Source: a phage. Taken from it: DNA of 64,000 nt. The stretch lies in assembly GCA_026209155.1 (NCBI GenBank), contig GCA_026209155.1_3056.1, one strand, 5' to 3'. Shown piece after piece: positions 297-41,197 of the stretch. Within the stretch, counting starts at the first letter, position 1, and every line of letters begins with the position of its first letter. The position numbers and the translations under genes were made by a program. The notes under the pieces were generated by a model that saw only the letters and a list, made by a program, of their open reading frames with translations, was not told where the DNA came from and made no database searches.

Positions 297-2474
297 TTAG
301 GCCGCAAGGGCCTTCATAGTTTTAGCGATTTGGGAAACTTCATCATCACTTAAAGAGTTGCGATAACCGATGAAGTCGGAAACAATACGGAATTTCTTGG
401 TAAACTCAGCAACCATTTTATCACTGTTTTTTGAAGCATTATTTGATAATACATCAAAAAGATTAGTTACTGTCCAGATGTCATGACCGATGGTATCTTT
501 TCCACCGTTGAAATATACACCCTGTAATGAACTAACCATATTAGCGAGTCGTGTATATTCTTCAGAAACTTCATCTACACTGAAGTACTTCATCATAAAA
601 TCTAGTTCAGGATACTTAATAATTTTATCAATATATCGTTTAGCTGAACTTGAATAACCTACATACTTATCATAATCTACATCATCAAAAGCATCTACAT
701 ATAAATCACGCAAAGTTTCAAAAATACATTGGCACTGACCAAGTTCTTTTACCTTTTTCTGCAAAAGCGGACGAATAACATAAAATTCATTAATGCCAAT
801 AAGATTAGCCATACGAATCAAAATATTCGTAGATGGATGACAAAGCGATGTAGTACCATCCATAGAGAAAATATCAGAATGATGCATGTATGCTACATAA
901 CCAGTAATTTCATCTGCTTCTGACGTAAGTGTAAACAATTCCTCTTTTTCCCAGCGCCCGTCTTTAATTTCAAACTTAAATGCGGTGGCAGCTTTAGGAC
1001 GAGGAGCTGTACTTTTTACTGCCTTTGGAATATAACTTTTAACTAAAGCTTCAATTTCTGACAAATAATGAATGTTAACTTCATCACTTTCAAACATTGC
1101 CATAATATCAGGAAGCAAATCAATCTGCGATTCTACTTCCGGATTAATAAACAGAAGACGCTCATTGTGATGAATATTCAAAGTGTTATTAAATTCACTA
1201 TCATCTAATGCACGTGCTAATCCACGGACAATATTAACACGATTTTTAATATTATCAATAACGATATTAATTTTTGTTGTGTTAATACCAAACAGACGAT
1301 AACTTGATGCAACGGCTGAAGTTTCATGACTTTGCTTAATGCGTTTTAGTCGAGGGTCAAGATTTACTTCATACACAACCCCTGCATTGCATAACTTACT
1401 GTCAGGTTCAAACATGCTTTGCATCTTCTTATATGACAGATTTTTAGTCGTGAATTTGACCGAATTACTAATCATATAATCTCGAGCAGAATATCCCATC
1501 TTCATCAATTCACGGTATGTATGACGAGGAGATGTAGATTCTTTAAATCGTTTTACATCTTCATTAAATGCCTTCTCACTGAGCTCTTTAACACGCTCAA
1601 TAATATTTTTACGAGTACGATCATCTAGTGAAAGAGCCTCACGCGATGGAGCAATATCAAGTGAACCCATTGGAAACTTAATGTAATTCACTTCATTACG
1701 AATGCTTAACCAGTTACGGTCTCTAATAACACCGTCGATAGGATAAACAATACCACCATAGATAGCATATAATCCACCACGATCTGGCCAGTATCTTTCT
1801 GGATTTACGCCGTAATAATCATCAAAATCAGGAAAATAATCAATTTCGCGGTCAAGACCATTAATGATAGCCAAATCTTTGAATGGTCGCATGATATAAG
1901 AAACTTCATAAGCAAAGTTTCTAAAGTCTTTTTCTTCAACTGGAACTACGATTTCAATACCAGTTTTATCGTCTGGACCCATTTCTTTTACGAATGTAGG
2001 TTTAATCTGCGGACCGTCACCATCCATGTAAGCTACATAACCACGAATTTCGCCTTTATGATATGAAGTGATACTAAACGTATCAGTATAACTAAACGGA
2101 GATTTAGAACCTAAACCAAATCCACCAATGAAATCATTAGATTCAGCCTTAGATGAACTGAAGTATGAATTATACAACCCAGGAGAATTATCATCACCCT
2201 GAATATCAAAATCGCTCATACCCGGACCAAAATCTCGACAAACAAATCGCGGATCTAATCGTCCTGGAACTTGAATGATAAATTTTTCAGGATTTCCATT
2301 AAGAGCATGGGCATCAATCATGTTGGTAATCAATTCACGGACTACTGCGCGAATCTTGTTTGTATACAAATCAGATGATAGAATTTTAAATACTTTAGGA
2401 GATGCTGTGATGCTAAATGCTTTTGATTTAGAACCATTACCAAGAATTGTTTCTTTTTCAGTGGTGATAATCAT
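297..2474 (-). CDS. rIIA: rIIA membrane-associated protein (GHKL/HATPase-like)
   Basis: 725-aa ORF, N-terminus [20 protein letters not shown]..., same length as T4 rIIA; 11-nt gap to rIIB start as in T-even phages. Confidence 0.9.
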
Positions 2475-4902: not shown

Positions 4903-5266
4903 ATTTAATGGCTTGAAGAAGACTAATAATTCTCAAGCGACTTCTTTCATCTTTAACTGTAAAAGAAAGAGGGTCACCAGATTTCATAGTGATGGTGCAT
5001 CCAAAATCAAAATCTTCTGTAACTTCTTCGAATAGGTCAAATTCTTCATCATAAATTAGAACATTACTCTGAAAACTGTGAAGAATTTTTCCATCATTTC
5101 CAGATGCTGTACTAATCACTGTAACATTATTACCTTTCATATCTTCAACGATAAATTCGCTTGTAGATATTACATTACTAATAGAACCATTCCTATAAAT
5201 AGCAGAAAATAGATATTTCTTTTCTTCACCTTCGCGAATGCGATATTTCTTACCGATTTTAAACAT
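4895..5266 (-). CDS. hypothetical protein
   Basis: Track ORF 4895..5272 begins with GTG; first ATG gives MFKIGKKYRIREGEEKK... (123 aa); ATGA-type junction with upstream small ORF. Confidence 0.45.
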   Translation of the reverse strand: MFKIGKKYRIREGEEKKYLFSAIYRNGSISNVISTSEFIVEDMKGNNVTVISTASGNDGKILHSFQSNVLIYDEEFDLFEEVTEDFDFGCTITMKSGDPLSFTVKDERSRLRIISLLQAIKFE

Positions 5267-15034: not shown

Positions 15035-15280
15035 TTAACCGCCAGTTACTTTCCACAAATCTTCGTTTGCAGCAATCCACGCAGCACGTTGATTTTCTTC
15101 ATATACAGTAGTATATGCTGCTTTTTCTGAAGGGAATGTCTGGTAATGAGCACCAGAAATTTTGTGAACGTCAGAATAAAGAGGGAAAGCTACAGAAATT
15201 TCCTTTCCTTCAATTTTCTTATTTCCATCTAATTTCTGCTCAAATGTTTTGATATTAACATAACCGCGAGTACTAGCCAT
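15035..15280 (-). CDS. soc: small outer capsid protein Soc
   Basis: 81-aa ORF MASTRGYVNIKTFEQKLDGNKKIEGKEISVAFPLYSDVHKISGAHYQTF..., matching T4 Soc. Confidence 0.9.
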   Translation of the reverse strand: MASTRGYVNIKTFEQKLDGNKKIEGKEISVAFPLYSDVHKISGAHYQTFPSEKAAYTTVYEENQRAAWIAANEDLWKVTGG

Positions 15281-15310: not shown

Positions 15311-15318
15311 TATTTATA
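15311..15318 (-). promoter_or_regulatory. late promoter core TATAAATA upstream of soc
   Basis: Plus tatttata at 15311-15318, about 31 nt upstream of the soc ATG. Confidence 0.5.
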
Positions 15319-15364: not shown

Positions 15365-15883
15365 TTAATAACCTCGGTCTTGACGAGCGAAGTTTTCAGC
15401 ATTTTTCAGATAATAAAGTTTAAAGATTTCTTCAGCCGTAAGACCGAGACCTTGGAACATGTTCAGAACGAAATGAAGAATATCAATCATTTCGAATTTA
15501 ATTTCCAACTGGTCTTGCGGAGACAAATCAGTAATTAGAGTTTCACGACGTTCACCATGTTGAGCTTTCCAAGGCTTCCATACAGCAGATGCATCTTTTT
15601 CGCCATTGCTCATACCGCCAAGAGAAGTTAGAAGTTCACGGAATTCATCGTCAATATAATCTTTCTGATTACGCAGCCAATCAACAACTTCACCTGCAGT
15701 AGCCAAATCATCAGGATGACGGTTATATTCAGGTTTATCTTTAGCTAAACGAACTTGCAGAGATTTCTGCATATCAAGCATAACCTGCAGTGGGTCTTTT
15801 TCATCACCGAGAATATCCCAGTATTCATTTTGAGCTTTATCAGCGCCTTCGATCAGTTGTGAACATTCATTAAAGTATGCCAT
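15365..15883 (-). CDS. 56: dCTP pyrophosphatase (dCTPase-dUTPase)
   Basis: ATG at 15881-15883 with AAGGA RBS gives 172 aa (MAYFNECSQLIEGADKAQNEYW...); the track ORF has a 31-codon upstream extension. Confidence 0.8.
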   Translation of the reverse strand: MAYFNECSQLIEGADKAQNEYWDILGDEKDPLQVMLDMQKSLQVRLAKDKPEYNRHPDDLATAGEVVDWLRNQKDYIDDEFRELLTSLGGMSNGEKDASAVWKPWKAQHGERRETLITDLSPQDQLEIKFEMIDILHFVLNMFQGLGLTAEEIFKLYYLKNAENFARQDRGY

Positions 15884-15915
15884 TATTTTTCCTTTCAATT
15901 CATGGGTTAGTAGAT

Positions 15916-15945
15916 TAATTATACAATAAATATATAAAGCAATAA
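15916..15945 (-). promoter_or_regulatory. MotA-dependent middle promoter for gene 56
   Basis: Minus strand reads ATTGCTTTA (MotA box) - 11 nt - TATAAT; plus-strand coordinates taaagcaat 15935-15943, attata 15918-15923. Confidence 0.5.
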
Positions 15946-15954
15946 GGAGGACAT

Positions 15955-16155
15955 ATGGTGCAAAAATTAATGGCACTTGTTGATGCCATCAAAGGTAATA
16001 AAAAACGTATAGCTTTTACTATTTCTGCTATGATAGGAATTTTACTTTGGAATTTTGTTTTATCGCCAGTTGCTATTGCTCATGGCGTTAGTATTCCAGT
16101 AATTACTCTTGATACATTCGTAGATTTAGCATTTGCTTTAGTTGGGTTAATTTAA
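15955..16155 (+). CDS. candidate small hydrophobic protein on the plus strand (66 aa)
   Basis: ATG at 15955 preceded by AAGGAGG (4-nt spacing); MVQKLMALVDAIKGNKKRIAFTISAMIGILLWNFVLSPVAIAHGVSIPVITLDTFVDLAFALVGLI; exactly fills the 56-61 spacer; convergent with gene 61 (4-nt overlap). Confidence 0.3.
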   Translation: MVQKLMALVDAIKGNKKRIAFTISAMIGILLWNFVLSPVAIAHGVSIPVITLDTFVDLAFALVGLI

Positions 16156-17180
16156 ATCTTAGCATATTTAGATAGCCGCATTTTAGCCATCAACCCCTGC
16201 GCAATATTATTTTTCATATATTCCATAATTTGTTCAGGGGTTGCACCTTCCTTTCTAATCATATCATTGACATCTTTTGATTTCCAGGGAGATTTATCCC
16301 AAAACATAACCCTTTCTCCTGCATCAACTAATTTAGTCATTCGTTTAATAGTGTCAGGGTGACGAGGTTCATTATCTAAAACCCATACACGTCTATCTTT
16401 AAATGGAACAATTTCTAGGTCTAATTGACCACCCGTAATAGCTATACCATTTTCAATAAAAAGTGAATCTATAGGTCCTTCTAGAACATATACATCACCA
16501 TCTTTAACCCGTTCGACTCCATAAATTTTTGTTGCCTCAGGATAAGCTTTGATGGTGATATATTTTTGGGGAGCGTCTTTCTTTAATGCACGTCCTTGAA
16601 AAGACTCAGCTTTTCCATTAGCATTATAAATTGGAATAACAAGACGAGGCTCAGGTATTTCCTTTTTATATGTTCCTGGCGCTATGCTATTAACTAATTT
16701 AGGCCATTCGGTTGTAAACCAAAGATATTTCCATTTATCCTTTGGAATACAGCGAGCTTTTACGTATTTTATAATTGGATGGTCTTCCGTCAGTTTATCT
16801 AATCTAATGCATGACGGAAGAGATTTAATTATTTTCTTCTCGGGTTGTTTAGGAAGTTCTTTAGGTTTTTCTACTGGACGACTTTTACCTTTTTCTTTTC
16901 TTATTTCAAAGATATACTCACGATATAAATCAGGTTCAAACTCCTTTAAATATATTCCGATTGGTGCATGATAGTTACAGTTATAGCAATGAATATTTCC
17001 TTCATTATTATCACCATAATACCATCCACGGGCTTTATTTTGGTCGGTTTTTGAATCTCCACAAACAGGGCATCTAAACCGTAATTTAAAAGTTGAACTA
17101 TTATTTACTTGTGTAAATTTAGGTAAATGAGCTAGCGCACGATATGCAAACTCATTATCAATCCAAGGTATTGATGACAT
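16152..17180 (-). CDS. 61: DNA primase
   Basis: 342-aa ORF, MSSIPWIDNEFAYRALAHLPKF..., zinc ribbon CPVCGD...CYNC and TOPRIM; same length as T4 gp61. Confidence 0.9.
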   Translation of the reverse strand: MSSIPWIDNEFAYRALAHLPKFTQVNNSSTFKLRFRCPVCGDSKTDQNKARGWYYGDNNEGNIHCYNCNYHAPIGIYLKEFEPDLYREYIFEIRKEKGKSRPVEKPKELPKQPEKKIIKSLPSCIRLDKLTEDHPIIKYVKARCIPKDKWKYLWFTTEWPKLVNSIAPGTYKKEIPEPRLVIPIYNANGKAESFQGRALKKDAPQKYITIKAYPEATKIYGVERVKDGDVYVLEGPIDSLFIENGIAITGGQLDLEIVPFKDRRVWVLDNEPRHPDTIKRMTKLVDAGERVMFWDKSPWKSKDVNDMIRKEGATPEQIMEYMKNNIAQGLMAKMRLSKYAKI

Positions 17181-17348: not shown

Positions 17349-17975
17349 TTAACCTCTATTCATAAAAGCGTTAAAAATTTGGTCATCAATAGAAACATTT
17401 ACTTTAGACTGTTTTTCAGATGGCAATTCATATCCACATATTACAATTTTATGATCAATATCAAAATACACAGAAGCAATATGATTAATGATATTTTCAG
17501 TGAAGTCTAAATCGACATCAATATCTTTTTGACCAAAGCCAAAAGGATAAATAATGCGAGTAATTCGATTATCTTTAACAAAGATTCCACCGACATACTC
17601 TGTACTGCGTTTAAAGTCTACACGCCGACGAAATGAAAAATATTCAGGCTCTTTATGAGCTCGGCTCATAGGACACAACGAATAACTAGAATAAGAGATG
17701 TCAAATCCTACGCCTTCGATATGAGCCAAAGTGTCATGATTAAACCAATTATAATCGTACGCCAAATCCATTAGATTATAATATGTAAAAGGCACCGGAT
17801 TAACATCATTAGTCACAAGCATATAATTAGCAACTGCTATAATTTCATTGTTTTTAACGAATACAAACCGTGATTGATGCGAATGGCCTGAACCCGCGTT
17901 TTCACGATTAATGATATAACACTGGGCACCTTTATATTTGTATGTATCTTTGCACTTGTGCATTTGATAGAGCAT
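17349..17975 (-). CDS. hypothetical protein (61.2 position)
   Basis: 208-aa ORF. Confidence 0.5.
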   Translation of the reverse strand: MLYQMHKCKDTYKYKGAQCYIINRENAGSGHSHQSRFVFVKNNEIIAVANYMLVTNDVNPVPFTYYNLMDLAYDYNWFNHDTLAHIEGVGFDISYSSYSLCPMSRAHKEPEYFSFRRRVDFKRSTEYVGGIFVKDNRITRIIYPFGFGQKDIDVDLDFTENIINHIASVYFDIDHKIVICGYELPSEKQSKVNVSIDDQIFNAFMNRG

Positions 17976-40370: not shown

Positions 40371-41197
40371 AATAATATCCAATTTTTCCAAGCTTCATCA
40401 GTAGAATTACAGCGTTTTAGTATAAGATGTCTAGAAACTTTTATGGAATTTGAGCACTTTTTAATTGAATCATATTTAATACCGTCAACTGAAACGGTTT
40501 TGCTAGTTGGAGAAATTTTTCCATACATTGGATTTTTTGAACCAACTTGAAGTCCTTTTAAAGCTTTTGAAAGCTTTTGTCTAGATTCCAATGACATGGG
40601 AGAATTCTTTTTACCTTCAATAATTCGCTTGCGATGAAGTTCGCGTTCTTCTTCACTCAAAGAATTGTAATATTTTTTAACACCGTTTGATATAGATAAT
40701 TTATCTTTCTCAGACCGCTCTCCAGCTAATTTACTTCTAACATCTTTTCGCTTCATAGCTATGCTTACGGCTTTATTTAAATTTGCTTGATGCTCTGGCG
40801 TACGTTTATATTTCTTTAAAGCACGTGAAATAGCTATTTTAGTTTCTTCTGTTCTCTTTTTACCTTTATTTGCTAAACTATTTTTGTGGCGATGTTCAAG
40901 TGTCTGTTCATAGGCAGTTCCACCTTTTCCACCAGGTTTAATATTATATGTATTTTCTTTTAGACAATACTCTTCAGTTACAAGTTCAGCTTCTTTATCA
41001 TACATTTGCTTTTCATTATCAAAAACATATAAAATTTCTTTATAAAAATTTTTTATACCATATTTTAATAAAGCAGCACGAATCAATGTTCCTGATCCCA
41101 TATAACCGTCATTTATATTATCGGTGCTATGCGCACCGATATATTCCTTTGAATTAATTATATTTGTTATTTTATAAATTATATAATACCTATGCAT
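40367..41197 (-). CDS. free-standing GIY-YIG homing endonuclease (Seg-like)
   Basis: 276-aa ORF; N-terminal YYIIYKITNIINSKEYIGAHS motif; NUMOD3-like repeats (KGKKRTEETKIAISRALK, SPMSLESRQKLSKALKG); wedged between nrdD and nrdG with 4-8 nt overlaps. Confidence 0.7.
   Translation of the reverse strand: MHRYYIIYKITNIINSKEYIGAHSTDNINDGYMGSGTLIRAALLKYGIKNFYKEILYVFDNEKQMYDKEAELVTEEYCLKENTYNIKPGGKGGTAYEQTLEHRHKNSLANKGKKRTEETKIAISRALKKYKRTPEHQANLNKAVSIAMKRKDVRSKLAGERSEKDKLSISNGVKKYYNSLSEEERELHRKRIIEGKKNSPMSLESRQKLSKALKGLQVGSKNPMYGKISPTSKTVSVDGIKYDSIKKCSNSIKVSRHLILKRCNSTDEAWKNWILL

Follow-up and report, generated by a model that had tools for sequence, protein, structure and literature searches.

A small plus-strand reading frame between gene 56 and gene 61

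The DNA that we analyzed, a stretch of 64,000 nucleotides referred to below as the window, comes from a T4-like Tequatrovirus phage and includes its soc-56-61 segment; the nearest GenBank phages are ~97% identical over 16 kb. Within the spacer between genes 56 and 61 (268 bp, 15884..16151) there is a short open reading frame, which we call the mini-ORF, on the strand opposite to all of the neighboring early and middle genes (Table 1). It starts with ATG at 15955 and stops with TAA at 16153-16155, such that its coding region shares 4 nt with that of gene 61 and both stop codons fall within TTAA. The initial annotation had described a 66-aa frame with AAGGAGG 4 nt before its ATG and a 4-nt overlap with gene 61, and the sequence reads exactly so. 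It had also given the soc-56 gap as 84 bp, which is correct, and the 56-61 spacer as 270 bp, which is 2 nt more than we measured.

Table 1. Features of the soc-56-61 region of the window
Feature	Position	Strand	Basis
soc	15035..15280	-	
Gene 56 (dCTPase), left neighbor of the mini-ORF	15365..15883	-	
Putative middle-type promoter of gene 56	15918..15944	-	consensus match
Putative T4 late-promoter motif AATAAATA (consensus TATAAATA, A at -13)	15925..15932	+	motif match
Shine-Dalgarno AAGGAGG, 4 nt 5' of the mini-ORF ATG	15944..15950	+	read directly
Mini-ORF, 66-aa small membrane-protein ORF (phrog_2024; 'dam.1' in RB27)	15955..16155	+	read directly and in the ORF list
Terminator-like hairpin (10 pairs) and U-run, 3' of gene 61, inside mini-ORF codons 1-13	15957..15992	-	
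Gene 61 (DNA primase), convergent right neighbor of the mini-ORF	16152..17180	-	

The mini-ORF had been singled out as the lone plus-strand coding candidate in 64 kb, and indeed, a mechanical screen for plus-strand frames (minimum 25 aa) that begin with ATG, follow a Shine-Dalgarno sequence and lie within a gap between minus-strand ORFs left the mini-ORF only. We found no paralogues of it in the 64-kb window. Since chance alone gave a closed ATG ORF of 66 codons or more in ~1% of cases (47-71 of 5000 Markov simulations of a 272-nt spacer, matched in composition to the mini-ORF spacer), a frame of 66 codons is by itself only mildly unusual. We take the comparative sequence evidence presented below, rather than frame length, to settle the mini-ORF as a gene.

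The mini-ORF belongs to a conserved family with an unannotated copy in T4

We took comparative DNA for the mini-ORF from GenBank phage records; a scan of IMG/VR yielded 8 loci only. The mini-ORF was found by tblastn in 696 phage records, and in 686 of these 696 it is near full length; ~190 of the records are <60% identical, including members of Mosigvirus, Gaprivervirus and Kanagawavirus. By megablast, the window ORF region matched 501 phage records, many of which call the ORF a 'hypothetical protein' or a 'putative membrane protein', and a second sequence type, like that of phage ZX14, was found in 509 records (143 from Klebsiella phages). In every genome inspected, the mini-ORF is encoded on the opposite strand, flanked by the 3' end of the primase gene on one side and by gene 56 (or an insert) on the other.

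The window protein matches the profile phrog_2024 (E=5.5e-30; residues 2-66 on profile positions 1-65 of 65), as did all 11 of the 11 diverse copies tested, which came from Tequatro-, Mosig-, Gapriver-, Kanagawa-, Dhaka- and Jiaodavirus, an unclassified Klebsiella phage and a metagenomic contig. The exact window protein is QXN75737.1 of phage BF15, and other family members are YP_010068205.1 of EcNP1 and AIT74399.1 of RB27 (with the note 'dam.1'); the mini-ORF shares family, position and orientation with these three, and nothing sets it apart from the family. Since a HMMER search of 1.84 billion representative proteins returned 6 clusters, all of which are mini-ORF family or fragments of it, the family is seemingly restricted to T4-like phages. 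The mini-ORF family is already in the databases, uncharacterized, and relatives annotate it as a hypothetical protein; a literature search found no published account of the mini-ORF itself.

We found that T4 has a copy of the mini-ORF at NC_000866.4 17738..17938 (+) (3239..3439 of L002 in our numbering of loci), in the 309-bp gap between dam and gene 61. The T4 protein, also of 66 aa, differs from that of the window at six positions, all conservatively, and the T4 copy is preceded by an AAGGAGG Shine-Dalgarno sequence and, 21 nt before the ORF, by GATAAATA (T4 17709-17716). This copy is unannotated in both NC_000866 and AF158101, and a search for the exact T4 protein found no NCBI accession.

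Not every database copy is intact: a few have frameshifts or are truncated, and in one, 3 codons are deleted. In the T6 copy (NC_054907; L016 1201..1401), ATA replaces the ATG start, and the CDS in the record begins at the in-frame Met6. Because some copies are damaged, the gene is perhaps dispensable, or the records may be in error. We did not adopt as a function the name 'putative head morphogenesis protein' given in the T6 RefSeq record, which is seemingly a misplaced label; neighbors in this record are plainly mislabeled (e.g., 'ferredoxin' for the gene 56 product). Separately, we observed that in Gaprivervirus the gene is followed directly by another copy of itself, of the ZX14 type (L005 2693..2900; L023 ~800..920; L020 and L022 ~790..910). 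This second copy is intact in TH15 over the part read (the first ~46 codons), is a pseudogene in VR20, with TGA at codon 2 and a frameshift, and is partly deleted in CJ20 and SP18.

The dam and segF genes are optional inserts at this locus

The initial annotation had noted that T4 carries dam in the 56-61 interval and segF in the one between soc and gene 56, and that neither is present here. Both points are borne out, the first by the T4 record and the second by searches of the window. Specifically, tblastn with T4 Dam found no homologue in the 64-kb window (best E-value 1.7), and the soc-56 gap, at only 84 bp, contains no GIY-YIG ORF. T4 SegF gave a weak tblastn match to a GIY-YIG gene at 40799..41197 (-) (E=7e-6, 30% identity over 144 aa), which points to a further homing endonuclease gene of the seg type, away from this locus.

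To describe the ORF as filling the gap left by dam was misleading, since comparison with the T4 map showed that dam occupies the 56-61 interval and that the same ORF is present there too, beside dam in the dam-61 gap. The idea that the mini-ORF replaces dam is ruled out, because T4 carries both side by side. We found dam in 184 phage records by megablast, compared to the 501 that match the window ORF region, and dam adjoins the mini-ORF wherever the coordinates of both are known. Moreover, the interval from gene 56 to the mini-ORF is a hot spot for insertions (L002, L019, L024, L025, L026, L003 and L028): T4 has dam alone there, BF15 and fPS-65 have dam with a 186-aa ORF, PYPS2T and KP1079 have homing endonuclease genes, and ZX14 and kv_tblp2 have small NTP-pyrophosphohydrolase-like ORFs or other ORFs without a name. 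Since the interval is a hot spot of this kind, and segF is a free-standing homing endonuclease gene that targets gene 56 (PMC2988022), the window represents an insert-free allele and the mini-ORF is independent of the inserts. The dam and segF genes are thus optional inserts, either present or absent, their absence is unrelated to the mini-ORF, and nothing unusual is missing from the window.

A putative late promoter motif lies within a probable middle promoter upstream of the mini-ORF

The putative late-promoter motif on the plus strand sits 22 nt before the mini-ORF ATG. Of the 50 late promoter sites that Geiduschek and Kassavetis report for T4, 32 match perfectly; A at -13, the commonest variant, occurs in nine (PMC2988020). 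Of 13 mini-ORF copies compared, 12 have NATAAATA 12-22 nt 5' of the ATG, with flanks that are unalignable between genera; in the remaining copy, from the metagenomic contig L014, no late motif was found. The motif reads TATAAATA in Kanagawavirus ZX14 and Klebsiella phage kv_tblp2; AATAAATA in the window, PYPS2T, Mosigvirus (ST0, phiE142) and Dhakavirus C6; GATAAATA in T4 and BF15; and CATAAATA in Gaprivervirus (VR20, TH15) and Jiaodavirus KP1079. Position -13 is thus other than T in several copies (G in T4; C in Gapriver- and Jiaodavirus), and T(-13) is known to be poorly conserved in relatives of T4 (Nolan et al., PMC1524935).

We examined the occurrence of the motif across the window, with the soc late promoter, TATAAATA at 15311-15318 (-), as a positive control that was recovered. 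ATAAATA is depleted ~fourfold (10 found vs 41.8 +/- 6.4 expected, both strands), and the soc late promoter and the site at 15926-15932 are among the ten. The full TATAAATA occurs 6 times, relative to 11.5 expected. The scarcity of ATAAATA and TATAAATA is consistent with avoidance of stray late promoters in the early region. We also note that plus-strand copies at 5195, 17547 and 60862 would yield transcripts antisense to early genes.

The arrangement resembles that of soc, a T4 late gene in the early region, which like the mini-ORF is short and has a TATAAATA-type motif a few tens of nt before its ATG. In contrast, soc is on the early-gene strand, whereas the mini-ORF is on the opposite strand and converges on gene 61, with its motif inside the gene 56 promoter. 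In T4, early and middle transcripts all run counterclockwise, and transcripts of either polarity are found only late (PMC2988020). We found no sigma-70-like promoter upstream of the mini-ORF on the plus strand within the spacer. Based on the late-type motif together with the clockwise orientation, transcription of the mini-ORF is probably late and gp55-dependent, and would start near 15938.

On the minus strand, the putative middle-type promoter of gene 56 comprises a MotA box, TATTGCTTTA (15944..15935), an 11-nt spacer and the -10 element TATAAT (15923..15918). It fits both the MotA consensus, (a/t)(a/t)(a/t)TGCTTtA, and the spacing of 12 +/- 1 bp from the -10 element (Hinton, PMC2988021). 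T4 itself has a mapped P56/69 promoter (PMC2988021), and the fPS-65 record has a predicted middle promoter upstream of its own gene 56. The late motif AATAAATA lies within the 11-nt spacer of this divergent middle promoter, and the two overlapping elements might compete for the same DNA.

A second minus-strand element lies within the mini-ORF. The hairpin and U-run located 3' of gene 61 folded with -11.7 kcal/mol on the minus strand (z = -3.7), compared to -7.0 kcal/mol on the plus strand (z = -0.6), and the fPS-65 record annotates a terminator at the same site; it has the appearance of a terminator for gene 61 that lies within the mini-ORF. We considered that this terminator might be the cause of mini-ORF conservation. 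However, of the seven copies that we folded, the two from Tequatrovirus both had the hairpin, and the five from other lineages all lacked it. Since only the Tequatrovirus copies among those folded show it, it cannot account for the wider conservation of the mini-ORF. We found no convincing plus-strand terminator 3' of the mini-ORF, and a late transcript should therefore run antisense into gene 61; such read-through might possibly have an additional regulatory role.

The mini-ORF product is predicted to be a small membrane protein

An AlphaFold2 model of the product, built with an alignment of 11 sequences (pLDDT 77.7), has helices at residues 2-12, 16-42 and 52-63. Kyte-Doolittle hydropathy in 19-residue windows peaks at ~2.0 over residues 19-41, and the GRAVY score is 1.29; the predicted hydrophobic helix 16-42 is long enough to cross the bilayer. 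Five basic residues (K4, K13, K16, K17 and R18) lie N-terminal of the predicted membrane helix, while the only charges C-terminal of it are D53 and D57. By the positive-inside rule, this distribution of charges suggests that the protein has an N-in topology. The acidic C-terminal helix, of 12 residues in the model, is too short to span the bilayer alone. The C-terminus itself, LAFALVGLI, is hydrophobic.

We searched for homologues of known function and found none in Pfam, NCBIfam, PADLOC or by sequence profile in the PDB, and Foldseek searches against the PDB and against BFVD returned family members or noise only.

Substitution patterns support a protein-coding gene

The comparative evidence indicates that the mini-ORF is, very probably, a real protein-coding gene. 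Among 12 Tequatrovirus copies we found 25 variable sites, distributed 9/2/14 over codon positions 1/2/3, and a pN/pS of 0.167 in the mini-ORF frame, the lowest of the six frames. The antisense frame -1 is also low (0.23), as codon phasing predicts, and the frame test by itself is therefore not decisive. Within genera, dN/dS was 0.16 for the window vs T4, 0.13 in Mosigvirus and 0.14-0.27 in Gaprivervirus. Between genera, where dS is high or saturated, a frame of 63-69 aa is still kept open. Moreover, GGAGG or AAGGAG lies 4-8 nt 5' of the start codon in all 22 of the 22 extracted copies and in three further lineages. Across aligned copies W32, N33, P38, G44, P48 and G64 never vary, and position 53 always holds an acidic residue. 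The comparisons thus demonstrate the ORF itself, its conservation, coding-type substitutions, and a ribosome-binding site and promoter-like motif that have been kept.

The initial annotation had left two options, a real opposite-strand gene or a chance open frame, and had named conservation and codon-level constraint in relatives as a check. In relatives, the ORF was found in 696 records, the pN/pS of 0.167 came from the 12 Tequatrovirus copies, and dN/dS within three genera was 0.13-0.27. Conservation, coding-type substitutions and the retained frame support the first option, and the comparative evidence rejects the second.

We considered that the selected product might instead be a late plus-strand RNA, acting as antisense to the primase (61) mRNA or to mRNAs that read through from 61 to 56, with the peptide secondary. 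The mini-ORF and gene 61 do overlap at their stops, followed by no convincing plus-strand terminator, and both strands of T4 are transcribed at different times at several sites (PMC2988020). However, the purifying selection on amino acids and the invariant residues show that the protein itself is selected; furthermore, the strong Shine-Dalgarno sequence is conserved, and several lineages have lost the overlap with gene 61. We therefore regard this explanation as improbable, although an antisense RNA could have an extra role beside the peptide.

A second alternative, to which we give as little weight, is that the mini-ORF encodes a holin or a pinholin-like lysis protein. T-even phages already possess a holin, T, which counts against this idea. 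The product is small, hydrophobic and probably late, and a few records carry automated labels to this effect (e.g., 'Holin' in OE5505, 'putative holin' in KP1079). Moreover, in sequence-based properties it would be similar to the S21-type holins and pinholins in size, hydrophobicity and probable late expression. In contrast to these proteins, it has neither a lysis cassette nor sequence or profile similarity to them, and no holin family was matched in Pfam or PHROGs. Its C-terminus (...FALVGLI) is hydrophobic rather than the charged tail typical of holins, and its second hydrophobic segment has two conserved acidic residues and, in the model, a helix of only 12 residues. Furthermore, its neighbors in all genomes examined are gene 56 and primase, not an endolysin or spanin.

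Far less probable is that the frame arose by chance and that its conservation comes from minus-strand elements, namely the gene 61 terminator and the gene 56/dam promoter with its leader. The spacer does hold the terminator-like hairpin within codons 5-13 and the MotA-box promoter beside the Shine-Dalgarno sequence, and the ~1% of simulated spacers with a frame of such length leaves some room for chance. However, among the copies folded the hairpin is limited to those of Tequatrovirus, and the minus-strand elements cover only about the first 40 nt. The frame of 63-69 codons, its start and its Shine-Dalgarno sequence persist where synonymous sites are near or at saturation, and it is the mini-ORF frame in which pN/pS is lowest. 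In addition, there is no overlap with gene 61 in Gaprivervirus, Jiaodavirus and the contig L014.

Finally, an early or middle immunity or exclusion membrane protein, similar to Imm and expressed from an unrecognized plus-strand promoter, would fit the small membrane-protein architecture and the presence of the sp (spackle) gene a few genes away, but is hardly credible when the known early and middle transcripts of T4 are all counterclockwise (PMC2988020) and the spacer has a conserved late-type motif instead of a sigma-70-like plus-strand promoter.

Possible role of the mini-ORF product

The explanation that we favor, and consider likely, is that the mini-ORF is a genuine T-even gene for an inner-membrane protein, probably expressed late, for which an envelope role is our guess, since it has no homologues of known function. 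We infer the late transcription, the membrane topology and any envelope role from the properties described above. Specifically, clockwise late transcription from the gp55-type promoter AATAAATA (15925-15932) would be followed by translation from the strong Shine-Dalgarno sequence into an inner-membrane protein of ~65 aa. This protein would have three parts: a basic N-terminal helix (2-12, then KGNKKR) that is probably cytoplasmic; a single transmembrane helix (~16-42) with the invariant W32-N33 and P38; and, at the membrane's outer face or beyond it, a conserved loop (G44...P48) and a short acidic helix (52-63, D/E53). Late in infection it might act at the cell envelope, through contact with another membrane protein or by self-association; lysis timing, lysis inhibition and late exclusion are examples of the processes in which it could take part.

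These particular functions are tentative. We think it unlikely that the mini-ORF product has any lysis- or exclusion-related role, and we hold equally doubtful the fuller scheme of a late inner-membrane factor in lysis timing or inhibition, or in late superinfection exclusion, with a nested promoter and an antisense mRNA. We note, too, a possible resemblance to type I toxin-like small hydrophobic peptides with overlapping antisense transcripts (Hok/Sok, TisB/IstR), in that the mini-ORF would encode a short single-pass hydrophobic peptide and would be wholly overlapped by transcripts of the other strand. Unlike the type I systems, however, the antisense RNAs here would be ordinary 61-to-56 mRNAs rather than a dedicated small RNA, and the mini-ORF is a gene of a lytic phage with a putative late promoter motif.

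For a genome scan, this is an ordinary outcome, in which a small gene was rightly spotted that is already a hypothetical protein in relatives. The points of modest interest are the gap in the T4 annotation, the probable late promoter nested in a middle promoter, and the membrane product. If the nested arrangement is real, the late promoter inside the spacer of the gene 56 middle promoter could act as a built-in switch from middle to late transcription. T4 is a reference organism of molecular biology, and its reference records omit a gene that is conserved, under purifying selection, in ~700 sequenced relatives; gene-by-gene work that relied on the T4 reference annotation would have missed it. 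Adding the mini-ORF to the T4 annotation and testing a knockout would be cheap, and might uncover a new late membrane function.
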